A stretch of 64,000 bases of DNA from an uncultured Pseudomonadota bacterium (GTDB lineage: Bacteria; Pseudomonadota; Alphaproteobacteria; Rs-D84). Below, piece by piece: positions 23,085 through 60,405 of the stretch (positions within the stretch are counted from its first letter, which is position 1; every line of letters begins with the position of its first letter). The translations under genes were made by a program, and so were the position numbers. The notes under the pieces are model-generated. The model did no database searches. It had not been told where the DNA came from and saw nothing but the letters and a program-made list of their open reading frames with translations. The DNA is taken from assembly GCA_946613885.1 (NCBI GenBank), contig CAMOGA010000003.1:11764-75763 (forward strand), read 5' to 3'.

Positions 23085-25673
23085 TTATTCAGTCATAATA
23101 TCATGGAATACTTTTTTTCTAAATTCCCCATCCGTTCCCATTTTTATCGCACAATCTTGTGCACACACATCTTCACAATTGGCTATTGTCATATCGTCCA
23201 AAAGATTCTGGGAGACACCGTTGCGGGACTGATACAATTCTGAACCACGGCTGTTTTGGAATGCTGTTGCTGTGCAATAACATTTTTTGTCATGACATTG
23301 TGCCAGCCCATATACATAACCATAGTCAAATATTAATGAATATTCATTTTTGTTCAGTTTTACTCCAAATATAGAACACGATTGATAGCGTTTACTTTTT
23401 ACGTTTATGCAACGTGTATCTTCTGGTTTTGATCCATCTATGGGTCTGTATGCCACAGCATAAGAATAATTTTGTGATGTATCAATATCTTTCGGATTGC
23501 TGACATCACCATTTTCATTATCTTTGTTGGTATTTGTCTTTTTTTCTGGTTCTTTTTTAGTAGTATTCGTATTTGTGTTTTCGTTATAATTTGCGTTAAT
23601 TATGTCCGTTTGTGCACAGAAACTACGTCCAGTGTTATCTGTAGATATTTTACGTTCACTGGATGGTGTGCATGATGTATGCGTTGCGATAAAACTATTG
23701 ATTCTATCTAAAAATTCGCATGCATCTTGTTCGTATTCCTGAATGCCATCGCTTAAATTGTGTATATGTCCGTTTTCTTTGCAGGTGTCATAATATCCAC
23801 CCCAGGTATCGCCTGCATCAATATCATTTAATTCTGCATCATCCAACACGTAATAAAAACCACTTGTTTTAACAGCAACCAAACAATCATTAAATAGGCG
23901 GTTGGTATTTTTATCAATGACGATGATTTTCTCTTGTATACCGCTAATGCATTGTTTAATTTTATCGAATTGTTCTTCGTTTTGTGTACCTGTTGCCTCT
24001 GATGGTGCGGGTTGCTCATTACCAGACGATGCAGCGTTATTGGAATCACCATCTTTGGCGGTGGATGCAGAATTTGCACCAGAACCCGATTCACTATCTT
24101 CTTCCGCTTCGGACCCTTCAGGTATATCGGCACGTATTTGTAAACATTTTGTTTTATCGGCACTAGACGTGTATCCATCGATGCAACTAATAATTTCACA
24201 TTTTCCGTTTGAAAAAACAGCTTTTTTAATCAGATTTGCATGTTCGTCTTCGGTTGTATTTTTTGCGTCCTCTGTACAATCGTCACCATCCTTGTAGGAT
24301 TCCTCAGAACTATCCTTGTCCACGCATTTACCATCTTTCAATTCTTTACCTTCTGCGCATTTTTGTTGATTTTTTGATTCCTTGTCTTCTTTTTCTTTTT
24401 TATTCGCATCGGTGTCATTACTGCATTTGCCATCTGTCCATGTGCCACCGTTCTTTTCACAATCTTGCTTTTTCTCTTCTTCTTTTAATGCCTTTTTCGC
24501 CTTTTGTGTTTCCAACGCACGTCCCATTGCACCAGATGCCACCAAACCAACAGCCGTTCCAACCCCAGAACCCAACATTGCCGAAGATGCCGCCGTTTGT
24601 GCACGTGTTTCACGATATGCATTTTCTTTATATGTTGTTGCGTTGATACCAAACCATTCCTGCATACAAACAAAAGTATCACCGGCATAACGTTTACGTG
24701 ATGCGGTCGGTGTTGTTTGATTTTCGCCCGCATAAAAATTCACAGTATAAACACAATCAAATGTGCGTTCATCAAACATCGCCCCCATGGATGTGCATGC
24801 CTTGGCCATCAAATCACGCAATTCATATAAACGTTGTTCATCTTTTTTGATGTCTATTTCGGCACTTTCGCGTAATTTACCAATCACGTTTCCAAAACGT
24901 GATGCCAATCCAGAATCTGATTGTGTGCATTCGCGTGCAATCACAGAACATTTTTGAATTGCCGCGTTTTCTGCCGCACGTCCCAAACATTTTGAATAAG
25001 TTATCCCACATTCGTTAACAATACATGCATTATATTGATTCCCACAATTTATCACATCATTATATGATGCCAATTTTACGTTCATATCACGATCGGCCTT
25101 GATTTCTGTGGTTAATAAACGAAATTCTTCGCCACTGCATTCTGTATCACGACGGCATTTGTTTAATTTATCGCCAAACACAGTATCACCATCCAATGCA
25201 CATTTTGTAAAATCATTACCGCACGTTTTCATCATACATTGGCGCAACATCGCATCACATGAATTTTTTCCAGATTTTAATGAATTTCGTGTGTTCATAG
25301 ATGCCTCAGACGCTTCTAGTGCAGCACGTTGTTTACGTATCATTTCTGCAAAAGAATTATCTGATGTCGCATTTTCCATAACAGATGAAACAACATCGTC
25401 AAACTGACTGGATTTATTTTCAATAATCAATTCTGGTTCGTCTGTTATCTCTGGTTCATTATCAACCACAGTTTCTGTGTTTTGTTGAGAATTTGTCTGT
25501 GTCGTATTTGTGGTTGTATTGGTTGACTGGGTCGTTGTAGATTTGCGTGATGCCGGTGCAGAACGAACCGCCGCACGTGGTGCAGCATCCACATAATCAC
25601 AAATTAAAAACAAAGAACACACCGCCATAATTATAGGCATCGCGATTATAAAAAATTTGTTCTGTTTTTTCAT
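23085..25673 (-). CDS. large secreted mosaic Cys-rich protein
   Basis: Signal peptide, T/N/Q-rich region, Cys-rich coiled-coil region, glycine-zipper segment, one DCT..NGKCEIISCIDGY..ADKTKC module (as in ORF 13709), and C-terminal FDYGYVYGLAQC..KCYCTATAF module (as in ORF 2138). Confidence 0.85.
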   Translation of the reverse strand: MKKQNKFFIIAMPIIMAVCSLFLICDYVDAAPRAAVRSAPASRKSTTTQSTNTTTNTTQTNSQQNTETVVDNEPEITDEPELIIENKSSQFDDVVSSVMENATSDNSFAEMIRKQRAALEASEASMNTRNSLKSGKNSCDAMLRQCMMKTCGNDFTKCALDGDTVFGDKLNKCRRDTECSGEEFRLLTTEIKADRDMNVKLASYNDVINCGNQYNACIVNECGITYSKCLGRAAENAAIQKCSVIARECTQSDSGLASRFGNVIGKLRESAEIDIKKDEQRLYELRDLMAKACTSMGAMFDERTFDCVYTVNFYAGENQTTPTASRKRYAGDTFVCMQEWFGINATTYKENAYRETRAQTAASSAMLGSGVGTAVGLVASGAMGRALETQKAKKALKEEEKKQDCEKNGGTWTDGKCSNDTDANKKEKEDKESKNQQKCAEGKELKDGKCVDKDSSEESYKDGDDCTEDAKNTTEDEHANLIKKAVFSNGKCEIISCIDGYTSSADKTKCLQIRADIPEGSEAEEDSESGSGANSASTAKDGDSNNAASSGNEQPAPSEATGTQNEEQFDKIKQCISGIQEKIIVIDKNTNRLFNDCLVAVKTSGFYYVLDDAELNDIDAGDTWGGYYDTCKENGHIHNLSDGIQEYEQDACEFLDRINSFIATHTSCTPSSERKISTDNTGRSFCAQTDIINANYNENTNTNTTKKEPEKKTNTNKDNENGDVSNPKDIDTSQNYSYAVAYRPIDGSKPEDTRCINVKSKRYQSCSIFGVKLNKNEYSLIFDYGYVYGLAQCHDKKCYCTATAFQNSRGSELYQSRNGVSQNLLDDMTIANCEDVCAQDCAIKMGTDGEFRKKVFHDIMTE

Positions 25674-37325: not shown

Positions 37326-38147
37326 ATGATTTGGACAATCTTAATCCTGTTGATTGCAATCGCGTTATATGTGTTTGGCGGCATGCTGTTCAGACAAGAT
37401 AACAAGAAACCATCAATATTAGATATTGTATTGCACAAATGCGTATCTGTAATCGCAATTATGTTGATTGCTGGTTGTGTATGCCGTTTGTGGACACCAA
37501 TGTATTTGGTAAATACAAATCCTGCAATTTTGCAAGAAATGGTTCAAAATATGCAGGCACAACAAGAAGCCAACAAGAATAAAATCGTTCGTCAATATGT
37601 TGCAAAACATGCAGATGAAATGATTGGTCATGCACCAATTGCTGGTAATGTAGATGCCAAGAACACAATCTTCTTATGGTCTGATTATTCTTGCCCATAT
37701 TGCCGTCGTGTTCATGGTGAATTATCACGTGTTTTGTCAGAACGTGATGACGTTCGTATCGTGTTGAAGAACTTTTCTATCCATGGGGCTTTGTCTGATG
37801 CACCAGCCAAGGCAGTTATTGCTGCAAAAATCCAAGACAATGCAAAGGCAGCAGCGTTGGATAAATTGTTGATGGATCGTGAATATTACACCCAGGATGA
37901 TTTGAAAGATCAAGAAAAATTGCCTGCAAAAATCCAAGCAAACGTCATGAAATTGGCGCAAGAAGTTGGTTTGGATACAAAGCAATTGGAAACAGATATG
38001 GAAGGCGACACAGTCAAAGCCGAATTGCAAAATGTTCGTGAATTGGCACAACGTTTTGAAATCAGCGGAACACCTTATTTGATTATCAATGATAAAGCGT
38101 TCCCAGGTGCGATTCCATATGCTCAAATTGTTGATGCATTGAAATAA
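37326..38147 (+). CDS. membrane-anchored DsbA-family thiol:disulfide oxidoreductase
   Basis: N-terminal TM helices. Thioredoxin-fold active site SCPYCRR. Confidence 0.85.
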   Translation: MIWTILILLIAIALYVFGGMLFRQDNKKPSILDIVLHKCVSVIAIMLIAGCVCRLWTPMYLVNTNPAILQEMVQNMQAQQEANKNKIVRQYVAKHADEMIGHAPIAGNVDAKNTIFLWSDYSCPYCRRVHGELSRVLSERDDVRIVLKNFSIHGALSDAPAKAVIAAKIQDNAKAAALDKLLMDREYYTQDDLKDQEKLPAKIQANVMKLAQEVGLDTKQLETDMEGDTVKAELQNVRELAQRFEISGTPYLIINDKAFPGAIPYAQIVDALK

Positions 38148-38164
38148 TCAAATCAATATAAAAA

Positions 38165-38190
38165 ACACCCGCAATTGCGGGTGTTTTTTG
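38165..38190 (+). terminator. rho-independent terminator
   Basis: ACACCCGCAATTGCGGGTGTTTTTTG. Confidence 0.8.
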
Positions 38191-38210
38191 TTTTTAATGA
38201 TGATATATTC

Positions 38211-48589: not shown

Positions 48590-50557
48590 TTAAAAAGCCA
48601 ATGTTGTTTTTGCCATAATGAAAAATTCATTTTCATACGATGGATTAACAACATAGGTTGCAGATAAATGTTTATATTTCATGGTGTATTCAACAGACGG
48701 GCGGGTTGATAAATCCAAACCGATATTTGAATACACCATTTGTCCATTATTTGCACGCGCAACCGGAATGTTCATATACATATCGCCGGAAATAATTACA
48801 TCTGGGATTGCGATTTCCAGTGTCCAATCATTATATTGTGTCCCGATTTTTGCAGATGCAGTATAGATGTTTGAAAACCCAGATATAATTGAATTATCTG
48901 TATCTGCGGATGGATTTGTGATACCAAATCGCGCATTTTGATAAAAACGAACATTATCAATATTAAATTCATTTTTATATCCGATAAAATTGGTTAATTT
49001 GTTTGATTTACTGGACATCAATCCGTATGATTCTAATAAATTATTTCCATGAAATCCGAATTCAAACGTATCGAATAAAACCACGGAATCATTATCGTTT
49101 TCACGCAGTTTATCAAAACCACGCCCACGTGGAATAACATTTATGTTGTCTGATAAATTTGTTTTGAACGCGCGTCCGAAATCATCAACAAAGGCAATTT
49201 TGACATTTGAATTTTTGATTGCACCGGCAATCGGACCTGAAACATTAATATTATTCAATGGGACAATATTATCATTTGATAAAACAATACGTGGATTTCC
49301 AACTGGCTGGGTTGCGCGATCCATATTTAATAATCCCCATCCATATACAGAATCAACACCACTTTCGCCCAAATCTGTGGCAGTTGTAAACAATAATTGT
49401 GTAATTTCATTTGCAGACATATACGGAAACGCTTCACGAATTATTGCGATTGCCCCAGAAACCACAGGCGCAGCAAAACTGGTACCAGATGCAAAATCTT
49501 TGACATCTGTGTTCCACCCAGAACCTGGTGCCGCAATACAATAATTTTGTGTGACACCGCATTGGTTGCTGAACCACGCGATTTGACCATAGTTATCAAT
49601 TGCAACCACATTTACAAAATGTCCATTTAATTCTGGAAATGCTAATGGCATCGCAGATAATGCACCGCTTTCGTTTTGGCTGTCGTTGCCGGCTGCCCAA
49701 ACAAATATCGCATCATTATCAATGGCACTGTTGCGAATTTGATTAACAAAATTTTCACTGGTTAAATTATACATATAAGATTGGGCATCAGCATATGTTT
49801 TCGCAGAATTTCCATTATATATCGCGGTTGCCGCATTGTTGTCCGGTGTTGATACCATTTGCCAACTGGCATTATAAACGTTTGCAGATGTGTTTGTCGC
49901 AACAACGTTTGCGATATAATCAAATGAAGCAAATTTATTTTCAGACGTTGTTAACCCCGTATCTGTTATATTTGCACCATTGGCGATATTTTGTGCAATT
50001 TCATGTACTGTGTCGCCATGATTTGCGTGAAAATCATCTAAGATTACAATATTTGTGTTTTTGCCGGAAAAACCACGTGCGTTCGCATATGCAAAATTGA
50101 TAGCATCATATTGCTTATGATTTCTGTTATATTCGGCAGTATTTTTTATCGCATTTATGGTTGAATCTGCAATGTCAGAACCGTTTGTTGTTTGGCTTTG
50201 ATAAGATACTGTGGCGATTCTGCGGTTGTTCACAATATCTGATTGGGCATAGTTCGCGTCTATGTTTGATGACAAAGCAATTCGTTGAAATGAATTTTGA
50301 TTTGTGATTGCACTGGACGAGCCATGATCCCCAGATGTTTGTGATGCTAGTGCAACCCCAACGCCAACCAATGCCGCGCCACCAGCCAATGTTAACAGGG
50401 TGCGATTACCAATCGTTGATTGCGAATTGCATTTTGTCGGGTGTGTATAACGATATTCAATATTATCGCAATTATATCCTGCAAACGCGCCAGTTGTTGC
50501 GAACGCAACCGTTAAAAATACAGAAAAGATGCTTTTTGTTAAATTCATCCCCATCAC
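48590..50557 (-). CDS. S8 subtilisin-family serine protease autotransporter
   Basis: Signal peptide. Asp (IVILDDF), His (HGDTVH), Asn (AAGND) and Ser (SGTSFAAPVVSGAIA) motifs. C-terminal beta-barrel ending ...TTLAF. Confidence 0.85.
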   Translation of the reverse strand: MMGMNLTKSIFSVFLTVAFATTGAFAGYNCDNIEYRYTHPTKCNSQSTIGNRTLLTLAGGAALVGVGVALASQTSGDHGSSSAITNQNSFQRIALSSNIDANYAQSDIVNNRRIATVSYQSQTTNGSDIADSTINAIKNTAEYNRNHKQYDAINFAYANARGFSGKNTNIVILDDFHANHGDTVHEIAQNIANGANITDTGLTTSENKFASFDYIANVVATNTSANVYNASWQMVSTPDNNAATAIYNGNSAKTYADAQSYMYNLTSENFVNQIRNSAIDNDAIFVWAAGNDSQNESGALSAMPLAFPELNGHFVNVVAIDNYGQIAWFSNQCGVTQNYCIAAPGSGWNTDVKDFASGTSFAAPVVSGAIAIIREAFPYMSANEITQLLFTTATDLGESGVDSVYGWGLLNMDRATQPVGNPRIVLSNDNIVPLNNINVSGPIAGAIKNSNVKIAFVDDFGRAFKTNLSDNINVIPRGRGFDKLRENDNDSVVLFDTFEFGFHGNNLLESYGLMSSKSNKLTNFIGYKNEFNIDNVRFYQNARFGITNPSADTDNSIISGFSNIYTASAKIGTQYNDWTLEIAIPDVIISGDMYMNIPVARANNGQMVYSNIGLDLSTRPSVEYTMKYKHLSATYVVNPSYENEFFIMAKTTLAF

Positions 50558-50718
50558 CTATATAAAATATAGTATAAATATTATTTTTGTCAATATATTT
50601 TGTCAATTTTGTATTTTTTTTGTCAAAAATGACTTGACGTTGTTCTATATTGTGGTAGTTTGTGCGTATCGCGGAGCAGAGAGTGTCTATGGGTAATATA
50701 CATGTTAAGGACATTGAA

Positions 50719-51234
50719 ATGACATATATAAGAAACACAAAATACATAACAATTAATAAAGACGGTGTTTTTGTTGGTGGAAAACCTGCAACACATTATC
50801 GCGGGGTAAAAATAGCGTCTGATTCTTGGGAGCATGAAAGCTTTTGTGCTATTCAGGCACGTTATCCGAAAGTTATGGAAATACATGTGTTATCATCTAA
50901 AACCTGTGGTGTGTATGCAAAGGCAGGAAATCCGTCTGCGGAAACTGGGCCAAATGTATGGTGTCGTGTAAAATTTACCAATGGACATATTGGTTCGTGG
51001 GTGCTTCGTAATAAATTTGAATCAGGTAAAGACTTTTGTGCGGAAAACTGTCTTTATGTTTGCATGGCAGAGCTTTGCTTAGAGGAAGATTTTCGCAATG
51101 CAGTATTTGGTGCCAAATTGTTTGATGCTTTAAAAACCTCAGATTTATCTGTTTTTGTTAATAATCCTTTACAAATAAACGGATATGAAATCGTTGTAAA
51201 GAAAATTGCTGAAACACACCAAAACAAAAGATAA
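50719..51234 (+). CDS. array cassette A1 (family A, AT-rich type)
   Basis: Start at MTYIRNTKYITINKDGVFVGGKPATHYRG (AAGGA RBS). Family blocks GNPS..GPNVWCRVKF, CAENC. Tail LQINGYEIVVKKIAETHQNKR*. Confidence 0.8.
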   Translation: MTYIRNTKYITINKDGVFVGGKPATHYRGVKIASDSWEHESFCAIQARYPKVMEIHVLSSKTCGVYAKAGNPSAETGPNVWCRVKFTNGHIGSWVLRNKFESGKDFCAENCLYVCMAELCLEEDFRNAVFGAKLFDALKTSDLSVFVNNPLQINGYEIVVKKIAETHQNKR

Positions 51235-51246
51235 AAGGAAAATAAG

Positions 51247-51687
51247 ATGTCAGAAAAAAACGAAAATCAAACAAACAAAAAAACCAAAGATTTGTCATCA
51301 TCTTTTCCGCTTTACATGATGTGTGTTCTGGTCGCGGGAATGATTGCTGCCGAGATATATCTGACGTTTTGTGGAAAATCAGAATACAAAAATGTCGTTG
51401 TTAAAAACAACAAAGATAAAATATTAGTTCGTGATATTTGTACCGACAAACAAGAAAGAATTTTAACTGGTATTGGTATGCATGATGCTGGTAGCGACTA
51501 TAAATATTTGGTTCCTGGGGATACAATCATCGTCAAAGCAGACAAGGGTGTTTATAAAAACAATAAAGTGCTTTATTATCCAACCATACAATACAATCGT
51601 GATATCACTTTGGCCAGACAGCAACGCGCTAAATTTAATCAAATCAAAGATTCAGTGTTTGCCGAAACACAACAAATCAAAAGATAA
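51247..51687 (+). CDS. array cassette B1 (family B, N-terminal TM anchor)
   Basis: 146 aa. TM helix FPLYMMCVLVAGMIAAEIYLTF. About 90 percent identical to ORF 57502. Tail SVFAETQQIKR*. Confidence 0.85.
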   Translation: MSEKNENQTNKKTKDLSSSFPLYMMCVLVAGMIAAEIYLTFCGKSEYKNVVVKNNKDKILVRDICTDKQERILTGIGMHDAGSDYKYLVPGDTIIVKADKGVYKNNKVLYYPTIQYNRDITLARQQRAKFNQIKDSVFAETQQIKR

Positions 51688-51700
51688 AAGGTTCGTAATC

Positions 51701-52015
51701 ATGGCAAAATCATTGTATGTAAAGGATATTGTAAGTGCACCATATATATGTACTGTGCCGAGCGGCGGTGTAAATGCGATTAAATGTTATCCAGATGCAA
51801 AAACATACCATATTGGTGGTGTAAAGATAGGTTATTCTGCAAAAGAACAAACATTGATTGTTTTATTGCGTTATTCAAGAGAACAAAATGACAAAGCCAT
51901 AAGAACGTTTAAAGAACTGTTTTGTCCTGGACAGGTTGCTTGGGAAAAACAGAAGGGTACTGAAACAATTTTGGAAGAACATTTACGAGAAAGAACACAA
52001 CAAATCAAAAGATAA
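51701..52015 (+). CDS. array cassette C1 (family C)
   Basis: Start MAKSLYVKDIVSAPYICTVPSGGVNAIKCYPDA at ATG 51701 behind the conserved junction. The track ORF 51473 is an upstream extension through the junction. Tail ERTQQIKR*. Confidence 0.75.
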   Translation: MAKSLYVKDIVSAPYICTVPSGGVNAIKCYPDAKTYHIGGVKIGYSAKEQTLIVLLRYSREQNDKAIRTFKELFCPGQVAWEKQKGTETILEEHLRERTQQIKR

Positions 52016-52028
52016 AAGGTTCGTAACC

Positions 52029-52571
52029 ATGGCAAAATCTGATAAACGGGATTTTTATATTGATTTGGCAACGAATACTGTTGAAAGTTTTCGGGATTCT
52101 GCCGATGCCAATTATACGATGACATATAATTTTGGTGATTGGCAGGTGTCCATCAGTTTTTATCGGAATAATATCAAAGGCGGGGCGATATATAAACGCG
52201 ACAATCTGTGTGAGCCGGTTGCCAAATGGTCGCGTTATATGGAAAGCGATAAATCTGTGTTTGATATGTTAATTGCGGTGCAAAGCAAAAGTTTAGGTCG
52301 TCCATATGTAAACCCGTTTGACAAAAAAGCAAATGTGATAGAACGTGTTGTCGGGGCACCTTATATATGCACTATACCCGCTGGTGGTTTGCGTGCGATT
52401 AAATGTTATCCTGATGCCATAACTTGTTTTATTCGCGGTATAAAAATAGGATATTCTGAGCGCGAAAAAACTATGATTGTCCCACTAAAGACGCCTGTGT
52501 CTGAAATAGAAAAGTGTAAAACAATTTTGGAAGAACATTTACAAGAACGAACACAACAAATCAAAAGATAA
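52029..52571 (+). CDS. array cassette C2 (family C with ~100-aa N-terminal extension)
   Basis: Start MAKSDKRDFY at ATG 52029 behind the junction. C-terminal half GAPYICTIPAGGLRAIKCYPDA...TILEEHLQERTQQIKR* aligns with C1. Confidence 0.75.
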   Translation: MAKSDKRDFYIDLATNTVESFRDSADANYTMTYNFGDWQVSISFYRNNIKGGAIYKRDNLCEPVAKWSRYMESDKSVFDMLIAVQSKSLGRPYVNPFDKKANVIERVVGAPYICTIPAGGLRAIKCYPDAITCFIRGIKIGYSEREKTMIVPLKTPVSEIEKCKTILEEHLQERTQQIKR

Positions 52572-52584
52572 AAAGGTAAATAAA

Positions 52585-53070
52585 ATGACAGATATACCAA
52601 ATACAGAATATATTACGGTTAATAAAGATGGGTGTTTTGTTGGGGGAAAACCTGCGACAACATATCGAGGTGAGGAAATATATGGTATAGATTATGTAAA
52701 AAAAGCATTTGAATTGACGCAGAGACAAAATCCAGATGTGGAAGAATTTCATGTCGGTGCGTTTAAAACACCTGGTAAATATGCCAAGGCTGGCAATCCA
52801 TCCGGTGAATGTGGCCCGAACGCATGGTGTCGTATAAAGTTGCGTGGCATGGATGTACCCTCGGCTTTGTGGGTCTTTGACTGTTCATACCCTTCGGTGA
52901 CCGATTGTGCGTATTTCTGTGCGAACTATTGCATGTCCTTTGTTCGCGCCCGCGTGGGTTTCCGCACCGCAGTTTTGGAAGCGGCAGAATCGCAGGTGCG
53001 TCCACGAATAACACCAAATCAAATTATGATTGAAAAAATCCAACAAGATACAAAAGTAAAAGGTATATAA
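52585..53070 (+). CDS. array cassette A2 (family A, GC-rich patch, truncated tail)
   Basis: MTDIPNTEYITVNKDGCFVGGKPATTYRG..., NAWCRIKL, GC-rich segment 52838-53005, tail ...IMIEKIQQDTKVKGI*. Confidence 0.85.
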   Translation: MTDIPNTEYITVNKDGCFVGGKPATTYRGEEIYGIDYVKKAFELTQRQNPDVEEFHVGAFKTPGKYAKAGNPSGECGPNAWCRIKLRGMDVPSALWVFDCSYPSVTDCAYFCANYCMSFVRARVGFRTAVLEAAESQVRPRITPNQIMIEKIQQDTKVKGI

Positions 53071-53071
53071 A

Positions 53072-53764
53072 ATGACAGAATTGGAAAATGTAAGACAGGT
53101 GACTCGGGACCTAAATGAATGGTTAGGCGAAATGCCTTATTTTCCGAACACAGAATATATCACTGTAAATGCGGACGAAATTTTCGTTGGTGGAAAACCT
53201 GCAACGCATTATCTGGGATACGAAATAATTTCACCAGAGTATATTAAAAAGACTTTTAAAGAAATACAAAATAAATTTTCAAATCTGCAAGAAATCCATA
53301 TATTATCATCGTCAACCGATGGTTATGTGGCACCAATACGAAAAGAACGTATAGCGACTGGAGGGTATGCAGCCAGTGAATTACGGCCAAGCCTGCAACA
53401 CGGCAACGCGGCATGGTGTCGTATAAAATTAAATGATGGAACAGAGGGAATTTGGACGTATGAATGCTACTATGGTACTTTTTCAGATTGTGCTGAAAGA
53501 TGTGCACAGGATACTATGAGGGATTTGACTAATGAAAAGATTCCTGCTACTCGATTTATTTTAGCAATTGCAACGAAATCCAAAACGAAATGCACAGCAG
53601 CAAAAAAACAAAATACAAAACCAGTACCACAGCCGGAAACAGAACTTAAACAAACATTAAGAAATACAGATTTATCCAAACTTGCTGGGAAAACTGTTGA
53701 ATTAAATGGATACAAAATCATGATTGAAAAAACCAAACAAGATATAATAACCAAAGGAAAATAA
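53072..53764 (+). CDS. array cassette A3 (family A with N-terminal extension, AT-rich type)
   Basis: ..PNTEYITVNADEIFVGGKPATHY.., AAWCRIKL, DCAERCAQD, tail LNGYKIMIEKTKQDIITKGK*. 1-nt spacer from A2. Confidence 0.85.
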   Translation: MTELENVRQVTRDLNEWLGEMPYFPNTEYITVNADEIFVGGKPATHYLGYEIISPEYIKKTFKEIQNKFSNLQEIHILSSSTDGYVAPIRKERIATGGYAASELRPSLQHGNAAWCRIKLNDGTEGIWTYECYYGTFSDCAERCAQDTMRDLTNEKIPATRFILAIATKSKTKCTAAKKQNTKPVPQPETELKQTLRNTDLSKLAGKTVELNGYKIMIEKTKQDIITKGK

Positions 53765-53765
53765 C

Positions 53766-54053
53766 ATGGCAGAAAAAGCGGAATCAATAATTTTATCAAC
53801 CGGCAAAGATGAAGACGGTGTTTTTGTACGGGCATATAATACGCATTGGAATACGTTCATTGTAAGTCAAAAGAATTATTATGCTAATTATTATCCTGAG
53901 CGCAGTAGAAATATAGATTTATCAGAATTACAACGTGGTGACCGGGTAATATTTGTTCGTCTTCAGTATAAATATTTTATTGAAAATCATTTAACAATGG
54001 AACAAATAAGAAATTCCTTTATCCAAGAGCGAACAAAACAAGACGGCAGATAA
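53766..54053 (+). CDS. array cassette S1 (singleton, 95 aa)
   Basis: 1-nt spacer from A3. Tail ..FIQERTKQDGR* resembles the common tail. Confidence 0.65.
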   Translation: MAEKAESIILSTGKDEDGVFVRAYNTHWNTFIVSQKNYYANYYPERSRNIDLSELQRGDRVIFVRLQYKYFIENHLTMEQIRNSFIQERTKQDGR

Positions 54054-54139
54054 AAATGCTTGCCCTGTAATTTTTTTGACTTAATACGCATGGCGCTATA
54101 TTTATGCGTAAATATAATGGATTTTTTTTAATAAAATAC

Positions 54140-54168
54140 TTGATTTTTTTATAATATTTGGCTATTAT
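54140..54168 (+). promoter_or_regulatory. candidate rpsB promoter
   Basis: TTGATT (54140-54145), 17-nt spacer, TATTAT (54163-54168). A ~115-nt structured leader lies before ATG 54284. Confidence 0.4.
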
Positions 54169-54283
54169 GGTGGCACGCATTTAATGCGAATAACACAGGC
54201 AACAGACATAATTTCTGTCCAAACACGTTTGGTTTTTTACGTCTGCTGACCGAGGATAACAACAGAAAACAAAGGATTTAGAT

Positions 54284-55138
54284 ATGGCATTGCCAACTTT
54301 TACAATGAAACAATTAATGGAAGCGGGCGTTCATTTTGGACATCATACACGTCGTTGGAACCCGTTAATGACACCTTATGTTTATGGGGTCAAAGATAAA
54401 ATTCATATTATCAATTTGAACAAAACTGCACCGTTGTTGCACCGTTCTTTGGTTGCTTTGGAAGCAATCGCAGCGGCTGGTGGAAAAATCTTGTTTGTTG
54501 CAACAAAACATCAGGCAAAAGATATTGTCAAAGATGCGGCAGAACGTTGTGGTCAATATTATGTAAATAACCGTTGGTTGGGTGGTATGTTGACTAACTG
54601 GACAACTGTTTCACAAAGTATTCGTCGTTTGAAAAAAATGGAAAACGATATTGCTAATGCAGACAAATTGGGATTAACCAAAAAAGAAGTCGGTGTTATG
54701 ACCAAAGAAGTTGCTAAATTGCGTGATATTTTCGGTGGTATTTTGGAAATGCACGGTATTCCTCAGGCGATGATTGTTATTGATGTGCCACGTGAAATGA
54801 ACGCTGTTCATGAAGCAAAAGTTTTGGACATTCCAACAATTGCTATCTGTGATACTAATGCAAACCCAGAATTGGTTGATTACCCAGTTCCAGGTAACGA
54901 TGATGCATCACGTGCAACACAATTGTATTGCGATTTATTCGTAGATGCAATTTTGTCTGGTATTGAAAAAAGATTGGGCGGCGCAGCTGGCAAAAAGGCA
55001 GACGTTGATAACGCAGAGGCCGCTGCAGAAGAATACGAACATGATTTAAAGGTCAAAGAAGCAAAACAAAAATCAAAAACTTCCGAAGCCCGCGAAGTTC
55101 GTCGCAGCAAATTGGCAGACAAAGCCGACAAACAATAA
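54284..55138 (+). CDS. rpsB: 30S ribosomal protein S2
   Basis: MKQLMEAGVHFGHHTRRWNP... typical S2. K/E/A-rich C-terminal extension. Confidence 0.97.
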   Translation: MALPTFTMKQLMEAGVHFGHHTRRWNPLMTPYVYGVKDKIHIINLNKTAPLLHRSLVALEAIAAAGGKILFVATKHQAKDIVKDAAERCGQYYVNNRWLGGMLTNWTTVSQSIRRLKKMENDIANADKLGLTKKEVGVMTKEVAKLRDIFGGILEMHGIPQAMIVIDVPREMNAVHEAKVLDIPTIAICDTNANPELVDYPVPGNDDASRATQLYCDLFVDAILSGIEKRLGGAAGKKADVDNAEAAAEEYEHDLKVKEAKQKSKTSEAREVRRSKLADKADKQ

Positions 55139-55160
55139 CTTATAAAGAAAGGAAATAAAA

Positions 55161-56030
55161 ATGGCAGAAGTGACAGCTAAACTGGTTCAAGAATTGCGTG
55201 AAAAAACATCCGCAGGTATGATGGATTGTAAAAAAGCATTGGTTGAAAACAATGGCGATATCGAGGCCGCTGCTGATTGGTTGCGCCAAAAAGGTATCGT
55301 AAAGGCTGCATCTAAGGCGGGCCGTGTTGCGGCATCTGGTTTGGTGACGGTTGTTAAATGCGATAATATGGGTTGTGTTGTTGAATTAAACGCAGAAACA
55401 GATTTCGTTGCTAAAAATGATAAATTCCAATCTTTGGTTGCAAACGTTGCAAACAAAGCACTGGAATTGTCTGGTGATTTCGATGCAACATTAAAGGCAG
55501 TCCAAGATGATATCGCTGCAACAATTTCCACAATTGGTGAAAATATGTCTTTGCGCCGTATTGCCAAGGTTAATGGTGACCATATTTATTCTTATGTTCA
55601 CAATGCTTTGGTTCCAGGTATGGGACAAATTGGTGTTGTTGTTGCAATCAATGGCGATGATGCACGTATTGACGAAATTGGTGGCAAAATCGCAATGCAT
55701 ATTGCTGCGAACAAACCTGAATTTATGACTATTGCTGACGTTGATCCAAAGGCGGTTGAACGCGAAAAGAAAGTATTCATTGAATCTGGGGCAACAGCGG
55801 GTAAACCTGAAAACATTGTTGAAAAAATGGTCGAAGGTCGTATCCAAAAATGGTATGCGGAATCAGTATTAGAAGAACAACCATTTGTTATGGACCCTTC
55901 TAAGAAAGTTAAAGATGTTGTCGCAGAACACGGCGGTAAATTGGCCGGGTTCGCATACTATGTCTTGGGCGAAGGTATCCAAAAACGCGAAGACAATTTG
56001 GCTGATGAAGTTGCAAAAATGTTGAAATAA
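55161..56030 (+). CDS. tsf: elongation factor Ts
   Basis: VTAKLVQELREKTSAGMMDCKKALVENNGDIEAAADWLRQKG... typical EF-Ts. Confidence 0.97.
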   Translation: MAEVTAKLVQELREKTSAGMMDCKKALVENNGDIEAAADWLRQKGIVKAASKAGRVAASGLVTVVKCDNMGCVVELNAETDFVAKNDKFQSLVANVANKALELSGDFDATLKAVQDDIAATISTIGENMSLRRIAKVNGDHIYSYVHNALVPGMGQIGVVVAINGDDARIDEIGGKIAMHIAANKPEFMTIADVDPKAVEREKKVFIESGATAGKPENIVEKMVEGRIQKWYAESVLEEQPFVMDPSKKVKDVVAEHGGKLAGFAYYVLGEGIQKREDNLADEVAKMLK

Positions 56031-56059
56031 TTTCGCATAAATCAAAAAAAACGGAGAGA

Positions 56060-56089
56060 GTCGCACAGGTTTTATTTGTGCGACTTTTT
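56060..56089 (+). terminator. rho-independent terminator after tsf
   Basis: GTCGCACA-GGTTTTATT-TGTGCGAC followed by TTTTT. Confidence 0.75.
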
Positions 56090-56109
56090 CAGCAAAAAAG
56101 GGATGAAAT

Positions 56110-56628
56110 ATGGCGAACATTCCAAATACAGAATATATCACAATTAATAAAGATGATGTTTTTGTTGGTGGAAAACCGGCGATAAAATATCGTGGGGTAG
56201 AAATAGCGTGGATTGAATATTTATGGGAACATTTTGAAGCGATACAAAAAATACATCCAGATATTATGGAAATGCACGCCCTGTCATCAGAAACACGTGG
56301 TGAATATGGCGTGATTGGTAACCCATCGGCAAAACACGGTTACAACGCATGGTGTCGTGCAAAATTTAATAATGGACGTGTTTTCCCATGGGTGTTTGTT
56401 AGAGAGTATGATTTTATGGATGAATGCGCAAGTCGTTGTGCATATCAAACTCTGGATGACTTTCGTCTTTCTGCACAAATGCGTTCTGCCGCTTTGGGGA
56501 CACCAGATCATTTGATAAAGGCATTAAAAGACGTGGATTTATCTAACTGTGTTGGCAAACCTGTGCAATTAAACGGATATGAAATCGTTGTAAGAAAACT
56601 TGCTGAAACTAAACAAAATAAAAGATAA
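56110..56628 (+). CDS. array cassette A4 (family A, AT-rich type)
   Basis: MANIPNTEYITINKDDVFVGGKPAIKYRG.., NAWCRAKF, ECASRCAYQ, tail VQLNGYEIVVRKLAETKQNKR*. Confidence 0.85.
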   Translation: MANIPNTEYITINKDDVFVGGKPAIKYRGVEIAWIEYLWEHFEAIQKIHPDIMEMHALSSETRGEYGVIGNPSAKHGYNAWCRAKFNNGRVFPWVFVREYDFMDECASRCAYQTLDDFRLSAQMRSAALGTPDHLIKALKDVDLSNCVGKPVQLNGYEIVVRKLAETKQNKR

Positions 56629-56640
56629 AAGGAGTAAATA
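56572..56640 (+). repeat. 69-nt direct repeat, copy 1 (3' tail of A4 plus junction); copy 2 at 56988-57056
   Basis: AACGGATATGAAAT[C/T]GTTGTAAGAAAACTTGCTGAAAC[T/C]AAACAAA[A/T][T/C]AAAAGATAAAA... is repeated on both sides of cassette 56641..56979. Confidence 0.85.
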
Positions 56641-56979
56641 ATGTCTAAAATTTTAAAAGAAAAATGGAAAAATGTTCGTGCTGCAAAAAAAGCAAAAAAG
56701 ATCGCAGAATCTGAAATAGTCGAAACAAGCACTGAAAGGCCAGATAATGTTTGCATATTTAATGAGATTCAACGGATTCCAGATAGGTTGAAAGATAAAG
56801 AATTTCCTGCACCAATGATAATTGTTCGTCATTGTGAACATTTTTCAGAAGGTCAAATCTGTGATAACGCAGATTGTCCTATGCATGATAAAAATGTGCA
56901 ATATATATCTGCATTAAAAAAACACAAACAAGAACGTCGTGAATTTTTCCACATGTTATTTCATGGTCGTAAAAGATAA
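56641..56979 (+). CDS. array cassette S2 (singleton, basic N-terminus, Cys/His cluster)
   Basis: 112 aa. HCEHFSEGQICDNADCPMHD looks like a small metal-binding motif. Tail ..HGRKR*. Bracketed by the 69-nt direct repeats. Confidence 0.65.
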   Translation: MSKILKEKWKNVRAAKKAKKIAESEIVETSTERPDNVCIFNEIQRIPDRLKDKEFPAPMIIVRHCEHFSEGQICDNADCPMHDKNVQYISALKKHKQERREFFHMLFHGRKR

Positions 56980-56987
56980 AATAAAAA

Positions 56988-57043
56988 ACGGATATGAAAT
57001 TGTTGTAAGAAAACTTGCTGAAACCAAACAAATCAAAAGATAA
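56988..57043 (+). pseudogene. orphan 3' tail fragment of a family-A cassette
   Basis: Encodes only NGYEIVVRKLAETKQIKR* with no upstream body. Near-identical to the end of A4. Confidence 0.8.
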
Positions 57044-57056
57044 AAAGGTAAATAAA

Positions 57057-57488
57057 ATGGCGAATCCATACAGTGTGTTTGACGAAAATGGACACTATAA
57101 ACCCGGAACATATAATAACGGGTATGGTTCCAAAACAGGAATGCCGATTAAAAAAAATCCAGAATGGCATGAAAGTGATTTTCATGGCACGTCCGCTGTT
57201 TATCCAACGTATGTTTATAATGTGTATCCTTATCGTACAATGGGTGGTTTATTTGGTAGTAAACCTGTCACATACTATAATGTTCGTGTGCGGTTTAATT
57301 CTGAATCCAAAGGTATGGAGCCACCACGCGCATTGGATTGTGCAGAAATTTATGTGGATAACAGCCCTTATCAATCATATTGGGAAGCGGTATATGAATT
57401 TCATGATGGTTTGTTTAAATCTGCACAACAAAAGGCAAATGATTTTTATAGCGAAATTGTAAATCAAATACGTTCGAATAAAAGATAA
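57057..57488 (+). CDS. array cassette S3 (singleton, 143 aa)
   Basis: Start MANPYSVFDENGHYKPG at ATG 57057 behind the junction. The track ORF 57015 is an upstream extension. Tail ..IVNQIRSNKR*. Confidence 0.7.
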   Translation: MANPYSVFDENGHYKPGTYNNGYGSKTGMPIKKNPEWHESDFHGTSAVYPTYVYNVYPYRTMGGLFGSKPVTYYNVRVRFNSESKGMEPPRALDCAEIYVDNSPYQSYWEAVYEFHDGLFKSAQQKANDFYSEIVNQIRSNKR

Positions 57489-57501
57489 AAGGTTCGCAAT
57501 C

Positions 57502-57942
57502 ATGACAGAAAAAAACGAAAATCAAACAAATAAAAAAACCAAAGATGTATCTTCATCTTTTCCACTTTATATGATGTGTGTTCTGGTCGCGGGAATGATT
57601 GGTGCCGAGATATATCTGACATTTGGTAGAAAATCAGAATACAAAAATGTCGTTGTTAAAAACAACAAAGATAAAATATTAGTTCGTGATATTTGTACCG
57701 ACAAACAAGAAAGAATTTTAACTGGTATTGGTATGCATGATGCTAGCAGCGACTATAAATATTTGGTTCCTGGGGATACAATCATCGTCAAATTCGACAA
57801 AGATGAGTATAAAAGCAATAAAGTGCTTTATTATCCATTTATACAATACAATCGTGACAGTACCTGGGCCAGACAGCAACGCGCTAAATTTAACCAAATC
57901 AAAGATTCTGTGTTTGCCGAAACGCAACAAAATAAAAGATAA
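57502..57942 (+). CDS. array cassette B2 (family B, N-terminal TM anchor)
   Basis: 146 aa. 14 differences from B1 by hand alignment. Tail SVFAETQQNKR*. Confidence 0.85.
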   Translation: MTEKNENQTNKKTKDVSSSFPLYMMCVLVAGMIGAEIYLTFGRKSEYKNVVVKNNKDKILVRDICTDKQERILTGIGMHDASSDYKYLVPGDTIIVKFDKDEYKSNKVLYYPFIQYNRDSTWARQQRAKFNQIKDSVFAETQQNKR

Positions 57943-57956
57943 AAAGGTTCGCAATC

Positions 57957-58514
57957 ATGACAGATACTAAAAATACAGAATATATCACTGTAAATGCCAA
58001 TGGGATTTTTGTTGGGGGAAAAACCACAACAACATATCGTGGTGAAGATATATGCGGTATGCAAGATGTCAAAAATATGTTTGCATGGATGCAGGAACAA
58101 AATCCAGAAATAGAGGAATTTCATATTGGTGCATTTGAAACGCGTGGCGAACATGCAAAACCGGGCAATCCGAATGGTGTGTTTGGTCCAAATGCATGGT
58201 GTCGTGTGAAATATAAAAATGGTAACTTGGGTGCTTGGGTCTTCAACTACACGAGCAATTCGGCCGCCGGTTGTGCGAACTACTGTGCGGGCAACTGCGC
58301 GTACTACGTCCGCGGCGACTCCGCCTTTCGCGCGGCGGTGTTTGGTGCGACAATTAAAAAACAAAATGTCAAACCTGTGACACAGCCAGAAGCAGAACTT
58401 AAACGAAAATTACAAGGAACAGATTTATCAAAATTGGTTGGCAAACCTGTGCAATTAAACGGTTATAAAATCATTGTTGAAAAAATTGCCGAAACGCAAC
58501 AAAATAAAAGATAA
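57957..58514 (+). CDS. array cassette A5 (family A, GC-rich patch)
   Basis: MTDTKNTEYITVNANGIFVGGKTTTTYRG.., NAWCRVKY, GC-rich patch 58236-58349, tail VQLNGYKIIVEKIAETQQNKR*. Confidence 0.88.
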   Translation: MTDTKNTEYITVNANGIFVGGKTTTTYRGEDICGMQDVKNMFAWMQEQNPEIEEFHIGAFETRGEHAKPGNPNGVFGPNAWCRVKYKNGNLGAWVFNYTSNSAAGCANYCAGNCAYYVRGDSAFRAAVFGATIKKQNVKPVTQPEAELKRKLQGTDLSKLVGKPVQLNGYKIIVEKIAETQQNKR

Positions 58515-58527
58515 AAGGTTCGCAATC

Positions 58528-59088
58528 ATGACAGATATACCAAATACAGAATATATTACAGTTAACAAAGACGGAATTTTTGTTGGGGGAAAACCTGCGA
58601 CAACATATCGTGGTGAAGAAATACGTTATTCAAACGTTGTGCGGAAATCTTTTGCCGACATCCAAAGATTAAATAAAAATGTTGCGGAATTGCATGTGTC
58701 GTCATCGGAAACATTTGGCGAATATGCAGAACCGGGTAATCCATCAGGAATCCATGGTCGAAACGCATGGTGTCGGGTGAAATTTAATGATGGATATGTT
58801 GCATCGTGGGTCTTCCGCTACACGTACAGTTCGGTCGCCCGTTGTGCGCTCAACTGTGCGTACGACTGCGCGCACGACATCCGTGAGCTCGCGCCGTTTC
58901 GTTTGGCGGTGTTGAGTGCGAATGATAAACAAAATTCACAGCCAAAACAAATTCAAAATCCAATCGTGTTATGTGATAAAAATGGAATTTATCATGTCAA
59001 AATTGGACATGAAGAATTTTCCGGCACACGCACAGAGGTTTTGAAACAAATGACATTGCGTATAAAAAGTTTTTTAAAGGTTCGGTAA
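58528..59088 (+). CDS. array cassette A6 (family A, GC-rich patch, divergent C-terminus)
   Basis: Start MTDIPNTEYITVNKDGIFVGGKPATTYRG at ATG 58528 behind the junction. GC-rich patch 58807-58920. Unrelated tail ..RIKSFLKVR*. Confidence 0.88.
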   Translation: MTDIPNTEYITVNKDGIFVGGKPATTYRGEEIRYSNVVRKSFADIQRLNKNVAELHVSSSETFGEYAEPGNPSGIHGRNAWCRVKFNDGYVASWVFRYTYSSVARCALNCAYDCAHDIRELAPFRLAVLSANDKQNSQPKQIQNPIVLCDKNGIYHVKIGHEEFSGTRTEVLKQMTLRIKSFLKVR

Positions 59089-59093
59089 AATCT

Positions 59094-59120
59094 AAAACCG
59101 TCCGGATGGGCGGTTTTTTG
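59094..59120 (+). terminator. rho-independent terminator closing the array
   Basis: AAAACCGTCCGGATGGGCGGTTTTTTG. Confidence 0.8.
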
Positions 59121-59187
59121 TTGATATCATTTGTTGCAAAGCAAGATTTTTCATGCTATTATTTCTCGTGATACAGAAAAAGGTTTT

Positions 59188-60405
59188 ATGATGAAAAATA
59201 CTCTGATGTTTGAATTAGAACAACGCGGATTTATTAATCAATGTTCAAATATTAATGCCGTTGCAGATTTATTGGATAACGGGCAAATCGCGGTTTATCT
59301 GGGTTCTGATCCAACTGCGGATTCTTTGCATGTGGGACATTTGGTGCCAATTATGATGATGCGTTGGTTGCAAAAATATGGTCATAAACCAATTATGTTG
59401 GTTGGTGGTGCAACCGGTCGAATTGGTGACCCGTCTGGCCGTGATACAGGTCGCCCAATGATGACTGAGGAAGTTTTACAAAAAAATGTTGCCGGGTTGA
59501 AAAAATCTTATTCTAAGTTTTTGAATTTTGGCGATGGGGAATCTGATGCGATTATCGTTGATAATTATGATTGGATGAAAAAATATTCGCATTTGGATTT
59601 TTTGGCGCAATATGGTTTGGATTTTACAATTCCACGTATGTTATCAATGGAAAGTGTAAAGAAACGTCTGGAAAACGGTATGACGTTTTTGGAATTTAAT
59701 TATATGACTTTTCAGGCGGTTGATTTCTTGACTCTTTATAAAGAACACAATTGTGTAATGCAACTGTGCGGTGCAGACCAATGGGGTAATGCAATTATGG
59801 GGGTGGAATTAATTCGCAAAAAAATGGGTAAAGAAGCATTTGTTTTGTCAACTGCACTGATTACAGATTCAAATGGAAACAAAATCGGAAAATCTGCCGG
59901 AAACGCAGTATGGGTTAATGAAGATAAAACAACCCCATATGAATATTATCAATATTTCCGCAATACACCGGACGAATTGGTTGAAAAGTTTTTAAAGATA
60001 TTCACAGAAATTCCATTGGAAGAAATTGCTGAATTGTCTAAAAAACAGGGCGCAGAATTAAATGATGTAAAAAAACGTCTGGCATTCGCAGCAACCGAAA
60101 TTGCGCATGGAACAGACGCGGCAAAATCCGCAGAAGATGCAGCAGCGGCATTATTCGGCGGTGGTGCAAACAATGCAAATGTGCCGTCAATTGATATTGA
60201 CATGCCAGAATCAATGGGGATAGTTGATTTCTTGGTTGCGGTAAAATTATTTGATTCTAAATCAGAAGCCCGCAGAACCATAGAACAGGGTGGTATCCAG
60301 ATTGATGGTGAAAAAATTACCGATAAAAATTACGTTGTTGAACCGCGCGAATCCATAATGGTCCAGCGTGGCAAGAAAGTATTTTTGCGTGTTAATGTAA
60401 AATAA
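59188..60405 (+). CDS. tyrS: tyrosine--tRNA ligase
   Basis: Start at MMKNTLMFELEQRGF (AAAAGG RBS). HVGH (HIGH) and KIGKS (KMSKS) motifs. C-terminal S4-like domain. Confidence 0.95.
   Translation: MMKNTLMFELEQRGFINQCSNINAVADLLDNGQIAVYLGSDPTADSLHVGHLVPIMMMRWLQKYGHKPIMLVGGATGRIGDPSGRDTGRPMMTEEVLQKNVAGLKKSYSKFLNFGDGESDAIIVDNYDWMKKYSHLDFLAQYGLDFTIPRMLSMESVKKRLENGMTFLEFNYMTFQAVDFLTLYKEHNCVMQLCGADQWGNAIMGVELIRKKMGKEAFVLSTALITDSNGNKIGKSAGNAVWVNEDKTTPYEYYQYFRNTPDELVEKFLKIFTEIPLEEIAELSKKQGAELNDVKKRLAFAATEIAHGTDAAKSAEDAAAALFGGGANNANVPSIDIDMPESMGIVDFLVAVKLFDSKSEARRTIEQGGIQIDGEKITDKNYVVEPRESIMVQRGKKVFLRVNVK

Follow-up and report, generated by a model that had tools for sequence, protein, structure and literature searches.

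The prototype of the diversity-generating retroelements (DGRs) is that of the Bordetella phage BPP-1, composed of the variable region (VR) of mtd, the template repeat (TR), avd and the reverse transcriptase (RT) gene brt (PMC5758913). Cellular DGRs with non-adjacent targets are also known, such as those of Treponema denticola (seven) and the Lineage-4 DGRs (Wu et al. 2018, PMC5758913), and Roux et al. (2021, PMC8144416) report the C-type lectin fold systematically for annotated VR regions. Here we describe two neighboring genes, A5 and A6, of a protein family termed family A, on a 64,000-nucleotide (nt) stretch of an uncultured Pseudomonadota bacterium of the alphaproteobacterial lineage Rs-D84 (GenBank assembly GCA_946613885.1, contig CAMOGA010000003.1, positions 11,764 to 75,763; this whole stretch is called the window). 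Each gene carries a GC-rich patch that is poor in adenine, and we consider it very likely (probability roughly 0.88) that both patches are of DGR origin, being VRs of non-adjacent target genes. The features concerned are as follows, with coordinates counted from the first letter of the window (ORF, open reading frame; aa, amino acids).

57957-58514, + strand: family-A gene A5, 185 aa, of the DGR remote-target type (ORF call)
58233-58345, + strand: VR of A5, 113 nt homologous to the TR, encoding aa 93-130
58528-59088, + strand: family-A gene A6, 186 aa, with a C-terminal tail cassette different from that of A5 (ORF call and alignments)
58805-58914, + strand: VR of A6, probably a partly decayed former VR (from TR comparison)

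As in BPP-1, mismatches between TR and VR fall at TR adenines, AAC codons turn into NNC codons (N, any base) while other positions are invariant, and an RT related to group II intron RTs adjoins the TR, here in the cassettes of relatives. Unlike in BPP-1, the window holds VRs only, the order in the relatives is target-TR-108-aa ORF-RT with an Avd-type gene in one lineage only (L023), the VR lies inside the ORF without a hairpin after it, and the predicted fold is not a C-type lectin. As in Treponema denticola and the Lineage-4 DGRs, one TR appears to serve a cis target together with paralogous targets elsewhere on the chromosome, and the elements are not phage-associated; unlike in those systems, the targets are of ~180 aa, lack a visible signal peptide and form a tandem array beside rpsB-tsf and tyrS, and this genome shows a series of VRs from intact to decayed. 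The mechanism itself is known; the novelty lies in the family of the targets and its scaffold, which is likely not of the C-type lectin kind, in the host lineage and in the series of decay in place.

A preliminary description of the window, made from the letters alone, had placed the patches at 58236-58349 in A5 and 58807-58920 in A6, both starting at Trp94, with 15 and 13 adenines; all of these values proved correct. The A5 patch has A=15, G=38, C=35 and T=26 (GC 0.64), the A6 patch a GC of 0.62, and when every 114-nt segment of the 64-kb sequence was ranked by GC the two patch loci came first and second (73 and 71 G+C), the next locus having 66. Outside the patches the two genes have a GC of 0.36, an A content of 0.37-0.40 and, at third codon positions, an A content of 0.40-0.42. 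Adenine is thus about threefold lower in the patches, while T is kept at 26-30 per 114 nt; since T is undiminished, the compositional shift is specific to adenine. The same contrast with the paralogues of AT-rich type (AT-type) had been noticed before, and their equivalent segments indeed contain 24-33 A. Extending the composition check to all family-A genes, as had been recommended, confirmed that the patches stand out and added a third, intermediate patch at 52870-52983.

The codon structure of the patches, as previously given, also held on recount: neither has an A at a third codon position, the 17 codons identical between A5 and A6 carry 2 A in 51 nt, and the codons that differ (21) are mostly NNC codons with changes at positions 1-2. 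The G+C content at third positions is 0.79-0.82. The 16 differences between the two patches in their first 75 nt are confined to codon positions 1-2; the last 39 nt have 14 differences, 6 of them at position 3. The variable codons are therefore of the NNC kind derivable from AAC, without nonsense codons, and are set between invariant scaffold codons that are free of A, as is characteristic of DGR targets. Antisense ORFs cross both patches, but these are trivial, because a patch without A leaves the opposite strand without T and hence without stop codons.

The proposal that the patches are DGR targets gained its main support from related genomes. A guessed template core (GCGAACAACTGTGCGAACAACTGCGCG), in which AAC was placed at the variable codons, was scanned over one genome per GTDB species and returned nine loci, all in Ca. 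Enterousia or in metagenome-assembled genomes of rumen/gut Alphaproteobacteria. In eight of them a second copy lies 0.3-1.2 kb from the TR, at the 3' end of a larger ORF, and 114 of the 115 mismatches between the TR/VR pairs of these eight loci are at TR adenines. Seven of the nine have an ORF of ~340 aa with a YCDD motif 0.6-1.4 kb downstream of the TR; the two tested (L007 and L010) match RVT_1 with 45-46 bits against a Pfam cut-off of 29.6, RVT_1 is also assigned to the RTs of L030 and L032-L041 in a precomputed table, and NCBIfam gave a sub-threshold similarity of a cassette RT to group II intron RTs. The template search suggested in the preliminary description has in this way led to AAC-rich TRs adjoining RVT_1 reverse transcriptase genes. 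Judged by their sequences, the TR-accessory-RT loci of the relatives are canonical DGR cassettes. An RT search with the L010 protein as query led to further contigs, and 13 distinct TRs were compared in all.

None of the nine TRs from the scan matches A5 or A6 exactly, each leaving 8-9 mismatches at bases other than template adenines (non-A mismatches), concentrated in the 3' third. A much closer template was present on a metagenome contig (L030, ENA ERZ28655167; TR at 539-651, 108-aa ORF at 1331-1657, RT at 1668-2693), and it is identical on seven more contigs (L032-L035, L037-L039), which come from several metagenomes. Between 58233-58345 of A5 and this TR there are 13 mismatches, 12 of which fall at the 26 adenines of the TR (hypergeometric P = 2e-8), the sole non-A mismatch being a G>A at 58258. 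Mismatches that are not specific to adenine had been named beforehand as the result that would speak against a DGR, and the opposite was found for A5, with a TR taken from other metagenome contigs. The A-free 3' segment of the A5 patch, TTTCGCGCGGCGGTGTTTGG, is common to the TR. The cis-VR of this A5-type DGR differs between L032 and L037 although their RT protein is identical, which indicates that the element is active in nature. An orthologous locus with 81-87% nucleotide identity to the window (L042) also fits the L030-type TR, with different adenine substitutions and 5 non-A changes; as the sets of substitutions differ from those in A5, the VR has been rewritten at least once since the lineages split.

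Remote targets of the same kind occur in other species. The family-A gene of L006 has the same neighbors as in the window (rpsB-tsf-[family A]-tyrS) and shows 15 A-site and 0 non-A mismatches to the L011 TR over 110 nt, and that of L003 differs from the L015 TR by 17 A-site mismatches and 1 non-A mismatch. No RT was found within 10 kb of either gene, so both are non-adjacent targets. Their layout is that of A5, with the VR internal to the ORF and no visible hairpin after it, and the 3' boundary of the homology between A5 and its TR is the same as in these two genes.

At the protein level, a search with A5 returned 168 homologues, and all named ones are from uncultured gut/rumen Alphaproteobacteria. 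The family-A proteins have no Pfam or NCBIfam matches, and a sequence profile search of the PDB was likewise empty at E values up to 10. Alignments of 35 and, later, of 120 sequences show a protein that is strongly conserved outside the patch, whereas the patch has the consensus W-V-F-x-x-T-x-x-S-A-A-x-C-A-x-x-C-A-x-x-C-A-x-x-V-R-x-x-A-S-F-R-S-A-V-F-G. In the 120-sequence alignment, columns 97, 98, 105, 108, 109, 112, 113, 116, 117, 120 and 121 have an entropy of at least 3 bits. The five residues outside the coding capacity of NNC (K/E/Q/M/W) make up at most 4% of the residues in these eleven hypervariable columns, as opposed to 47-88% in variable flanking columns. Scaffold codons, including TGT GCG / TGT GCG / TGC GCG, are kept at synonymous sites even where the proteins are only 51-68% identical to A5, and such identity inside a hypervariable segment calls for a template at the DNA level.

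We suggest that an RNA copy of a TR of ~113-130 nt, reading TGG GTC TTC AAC AAC ACG AAC AGT ... (TGT GCG AAC AAC)x3 ... TTT CGC GCG GCG GTG TTT GG, would be reverse-transcribed by the DGR RT with misincorporation opposite template adenines, and that the complementary DNA would then replace the homologous stretch in the target gene. Since bases other than adenine would be copied faithfully, the GC-rich, A-free scaffold would remain identical at synonymous sites across species, and since template AAC codons would become NNC, the variable codons would be of that form. The source genome would have, or would recently have had, a TR-accessory-RT cassette outside the window, with A5 as its nearly pristine product, and with A6 and 52870-52983 as older products in which rewriting has ended and which would be drifting toward the AT-rich composition of the genome. 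The adenines conserved between A5 and A6, which had been seen as a difficulty, are explained as template adenines that remained unmutated, with a TAC/TAC pair being the same substitution in both copies.

Explanations without a retroelement have to be weighed against these data. GC-biased gene conversion, or acquisition of the segment from a GC-richer homologue, is made plausible by the mosaic nature of the family, in which recombination moves segments: a gene of another lineage, P0004, shares the A5 patch at 97% identity between flanks of 57-80%, and an upstream block is identical. Neither process explains why adenine alone is depleted while T is kept, why the variable codons are NNC without K/E/Q/M/W, or why 12 of 13 differences fall at the adenines of an independent AAC-rich copy beside an RT; this alternative of the preliminary description is hence very improbable as the primary explanation, although recombination did move the A5 patch. 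Selection at the protein level alone, for a Cys/Ala-rich helix with an unusual local codon usage, appears more improbable still. The periodicity of C-A-x-x fits a buried helix face, and the AT-type paralogues keep the Cys/Ala scaffold with AT-rich codons. However, since these paralogues encode it with GCA and TGT, the use of GCG and NNC and the synonymous identity need a cause at the DNA level, and the TR match as well as the conservation of synonymous sites contradict a purely protein-level cause. The least probable of all is a structural or regulatory DNA or RNA element within the coding sequence, to which a GC-rich island in AT-rich DNA and the antisense ORFs across the patches might have pointed; the earlier suggestion of this kind is rejected, as dinucleotide-shuffled sequences fold as well as the patches on both strands (z = -0.1 to +1.1) and neither patch is overlapped by an Rfam match.

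Compared with its best template (the L011 TR), A6 has 14 A-site and 8 non-A mismatches, 5 of the 8 being GC>AT; in a strain 98.5% identical to the window (L001), A6 shows 13 A-site and 7 non-A mismatches to an L011-type TR, 6 of the 7 being C>T. No cognate template for A6 was found among the 13 distinct TRs, the best leaving 7-8 non-A mismatches. The third patch, 52870-52983, differs from the L015 TR by 20 A-site and 20 non-A mismatches, of which 15 are GC>AT. The non-A mismatches of both are dominated by C>T and G>A, and on the sequence evidence A6 looks like a drifting former target. The remaining members of the family in the window are listed below.

52585-53070, + strand: family-A paralogue with a probable, strongly decayed VR at 52870-52983 (patch GC 0.54, A=14)
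50719-51234, + strand: AT-type family-A paralogue, protein scaffold kept, DNA not template-like
53072-53764, + strand: AT-type family-A paralogue (composition and alignment)
56110-56628, + strand: AT-type family-A paralogue (composition and alignment)

The simplest reading of these genes is a series of decay, running from A5, still almost pristine, through the drifting A6 and the far more decayed 52870-52983 to three paralogues without template-like DNA.

Several observations weigh against a DGR origin of the patches, or against its simplest form. At least nine differences between A5 and A6 would imply third-position adenines in a common TR, which is not sensible; A5 and A6 are therefore not current products of one template, and it is with this qualification that their interpretation as DGR targets in the preliminary description is supported. 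Within the window no TR-like copy was found, blastn-short (word size 7) giving only the mutual match of A5 and A6, and tblastn of the window with the RT, 108-aa ORF and Avd of the relatives gave nothing below E 0.3. The contigs carrying the A5-type TR have a GC of 0.43-0.47 compared with 0.37 in the window, so that another species is their probable source. Instead of closing the ORF at its 3' end, the VR occupies an internal position (aa 93-130 of 185), and the sequence downstream of it shows no GC-rich hairpin. Four assemblies have the A5 VR in identical form (the window; L016, a 100% identical contig from the Joint Genome Institute (JGI); and L001 and L002, of the 98.5% strain), and its haplotype, variable codons included, recurs with 3 point changes (97% identity) in P0004, the flanks of which are 80% and 57% identical and which shares with A5 the identical block 58027-58105. 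A haplotype found between such divergent flanks must be old and moved by recombination, and this sharing indicates stasis and recombination instead of ongoing hypermutation.

That the window holds neither an RT nor a template had been noted before and was confirmed by repeat search, motif scan and tblastn. The one YxDD match, in a 1227-aa ankyrin-repeat protein without RVT_1, was rejected as an RT candidate. The cognate TR was also not found in the scan of one genome per GTDB species; a scan of JGI metagenomes with a 3' pattern specific for A5/A6 yielded a single 1.1-kb contig, identical to the window, and is uninformative on a TR in the species, and a protein search with the translated template peptide gave no scoring match, the query perhaps being too low in complexity. 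The variation within the population that had been proposed as a check was compared among a few assemblies, not reads: A5 shows none, and the three haplotypes of A6 vary in codons 25-30 only, with changes not confined to TR-adenine positions, so that variation restricted to TR adenines was not observed in either gene. The A5 protein cluster at 90% identity has a single member. The VRs look static in this lineage at present.

It is nevertheless possible, if rather unlikely, that A5 (perhaps also A6) is still being rewritten by a DGR encoded in another part of this genome, and that the assemblies caught one dominant variant. Such live targets would fit the single non-A mismatch that separates A5 from an extant, naturally active TR, the family-A targets with 0-1 non-A mismatches in other species, the 3' homology boundary that A5 shares with these proven remote targets, and the fact that only ~4 contigs of the species were compared. 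They are difficult to reconcile with an A5 VR that is identical in strains differing by 1.5% elsewhere and common to the mosaic gene of another lineage, with the 7-8 non-A mismatches of A6 to every TR seen and its population variants that are not confined to adenines, and with a window devoid of DGR parts.

The predicted structure of the targets places the variability on an unusual support. A first AlphaFold2 model, from 35 sequences, had a mean predicted local distance difference test score (pLDDT) of 71; a second one, from 120 sequences and for residues 1-140, reached a pLDDT of 87.4 and a predicted template modeling score (pTM) of 0.83. The predicted topology is beta-beta-alpha-beta-beta-beta-alpha-alpha, in which the VR comprises a strand (94-99), a loop and two helices (103-120 and 122-129), with the Cys/Ala residues of the C-A-x-x repeats on one helix face and the hypervariable pairs 108/109, 112/113 and 116/117 on the other. 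In the model, the variable residues are thus predicted to be displayed on the strand end, the loop and the exposed face of an amphipathic (Cys-Ala-x-x)3 helix in a small alpha/beta domain, and this variable surface would presumably bind a ligand. Foldseek searches of the PDB with the pLDDT-87 model gave a best E value of 0.14 and template modeling (TM) scores of at most 0.34, with no C-type lectin entries, and searches of the PDB and BFVD with the pLDDT-71 model were likewise negative; as far as the prediction goes, the VR-bearing domain does not have the fold of C-type lectins or the formylglycine-generating enzyme (FGE). The family resembles Mtd, TvpA, AvpA and TaqVP in having a rigid scaffold of invariant codons with exposed hypervariable residues of the NNC set, but unlike these C-type lectin/FGE proteins it is predicted to carry them on a strand end, a loop and the face of an alpha-helix, and has no fold match. 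A literature search found no account of a helical VR scaffold or of DGRs in Enterousia or Rs-D84, which is not proof of novelty.

The cassettes of the relatives are uniform in one further respect. An ORF of 105-118 aa, 108 aa in most, lies between TR and RT in every cassette read that far upstream, for example at the following positions.

L007, 6037-6381: conserved ORF between TR and RT
L010, 2100-2426: conserved ORF between TR and RT
L018, 3657-3983: conserved ORF between TR and RT
L030, 1331-1657: conserved ORF between TR and RT
L032, 9664-9990: conserved ORF between TR and RT

Pfam searches were empty for two copies (L007 and L010) and NCBIfam for one (L032), and the ORF may encode an accessory protein of DGRs that has not been described before. 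L023 alone has, in addition, an Avd-like gene of the four-helix-bundle type (TIGR02436, 107 bits; PF05635). The cassettes are flanked by housekeeping genes, and the TR core gave 0 matches in IMG/VR, which argues that the related DGRs are not phage-associated. The same Cys-Ala module terminates larger cis-targets that bear a signal peptide (L007, L018, L032). Among these, the 687-aa cis-target of the A5-type DGR (L032, 5964-8027, with signal peptide) has two variable modules, one internal (~aa 145-213) and one C-terminal; each ends in SAFRAAVFGVGA, and we therefore count two VRs in one protein. Upstream of the TR, L030 1-540 consists of GC-rich, partly duplicated segments in which CACCTGCGGTGGTCCCCCCCTCCACAGGAGGGGAATT... 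is present twice. In L034 (4400-12818) the same RT is flanked by a resolvase, two IS1595-type transposase genes and an FtsK-like ATPase, where L032, L033, L035 and L036 have a dprA-dnaA-gyrB block; a mobile element appears to have been inserted beside the L034 DGR.

Outside the array, one further gene of the window recalls these cis-targets.

2138-2956, - strand: 272-aa protein, the C-terminus of which is an AT-type module (CWCK...WVLY...C..CA..CA), at the position of the DGR cis-target in the relative L018; a peripheral lead

The gene order in L018 is OmpA, small ORF, P-type ATPase, RT, accessory ORF, TR and target, and that of the window is OmpA (323-1864), small ORF (1954-2106) and the 272-aa gene in the position and orientation of the target, with no cassette between. 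This synteny offers a weak lead linking the gene to a DGR cis-target. A second larger protein of the window (23085-25673, - strand) also ends in an AT-type Cys-Ala module (CEDVCAQDCA...FRKKVF). An 862-aa protein adjoining comM had been considered as a decayed cis-target because of synteny with L023, and was dropped as it has no detectable similarity. Downstream of the gene at 37326-38147, a 40-nt palindromic element (38156-38195) matches L030 2693-2732, just past the RT gene, in both orientations with 87-94% identity, and could be either a terminator common to both loci or an element of the repetitive extragenic palindromic (REP) type.

The array itself (50500-59200), within which the rpsB-tsf operon (54284-56030) is located, has further repetitive features. 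Genes of different families share an end/start junction, ...GAAAC(G/A)CAACAAAA(T)AAAAGATAAAAGGTTCGCAATCATGAC..., in six copies of 62-100% identity (e.g., 51177-51236, 56571-56630, 56986-57045, 57477-57509, 57885-57964 and 58457-58535); the C-terminal residues of the proteins before the junctions are ...ETQQNKR or ...TQQIKR, with 10-15 nt to the start of the next gene. The pattern suggests that cassettes were duplicated or shuffled while their joints were conserved. A direct repeat of 300 nt (51247-51546 and 57502-57801, 94% identity) copies the 5' part of a non-family-A gene (146-aa ORF, 57502-57942) 6.3 kb upstream. After A6, a stem-loop followed by a T-run (59031-59122) with sub-threshold Rfam matches (OmrA-B, 26 bits against a gathering score of 40; Phe leader) is most likely the intrinsic terminator of the array.

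These genes indicate that DGR VRs can be recognized from raw composition alone, even with the retroelement tens of kb or more away, whereas cassette-centred surveys state that they miss such distant targets (Roux et al. 2021, PMC8144416). Should the helix-display scaffold be confirmed, DGRs would have a second structural way of accommodating massive variation. Members of the order Rs-D84 have reduced genomes under 1 Mb and are thought to be obligately dependent on partners (PMC12306168), and multi-target, non-adjacent DGRs are now added to this partner-dependent lineage. We give even odds to a wider scenario, in which reduced-genome gut Alphaproteobacteria of the Rs-D84 / Ca. Enterousia type would rely on a DGR of the chromosome that comprises a previously undescribed accessory ORF of 108 aa, and on a non-C-type-lectin alpha/beta scaffold, hypermutated on the face of the (Cys-Ala-x-x)3 helix and on the adjoining strand and loop; one template would write a surface cis-target as well as arrays of small leaderless remote targets beside rpsB-tsf, and lapsed targets would fossilize in place as a datable series of decay. 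DGRs are abundant in organisms of the Candidate Phyla Radiation (CPR) and DPANN, which the Rs-D84 case echoes. The graded decay from A5 through A6 and 52870-52983 to the AT-type paralogues records the fate of a VR once rewriting ends.

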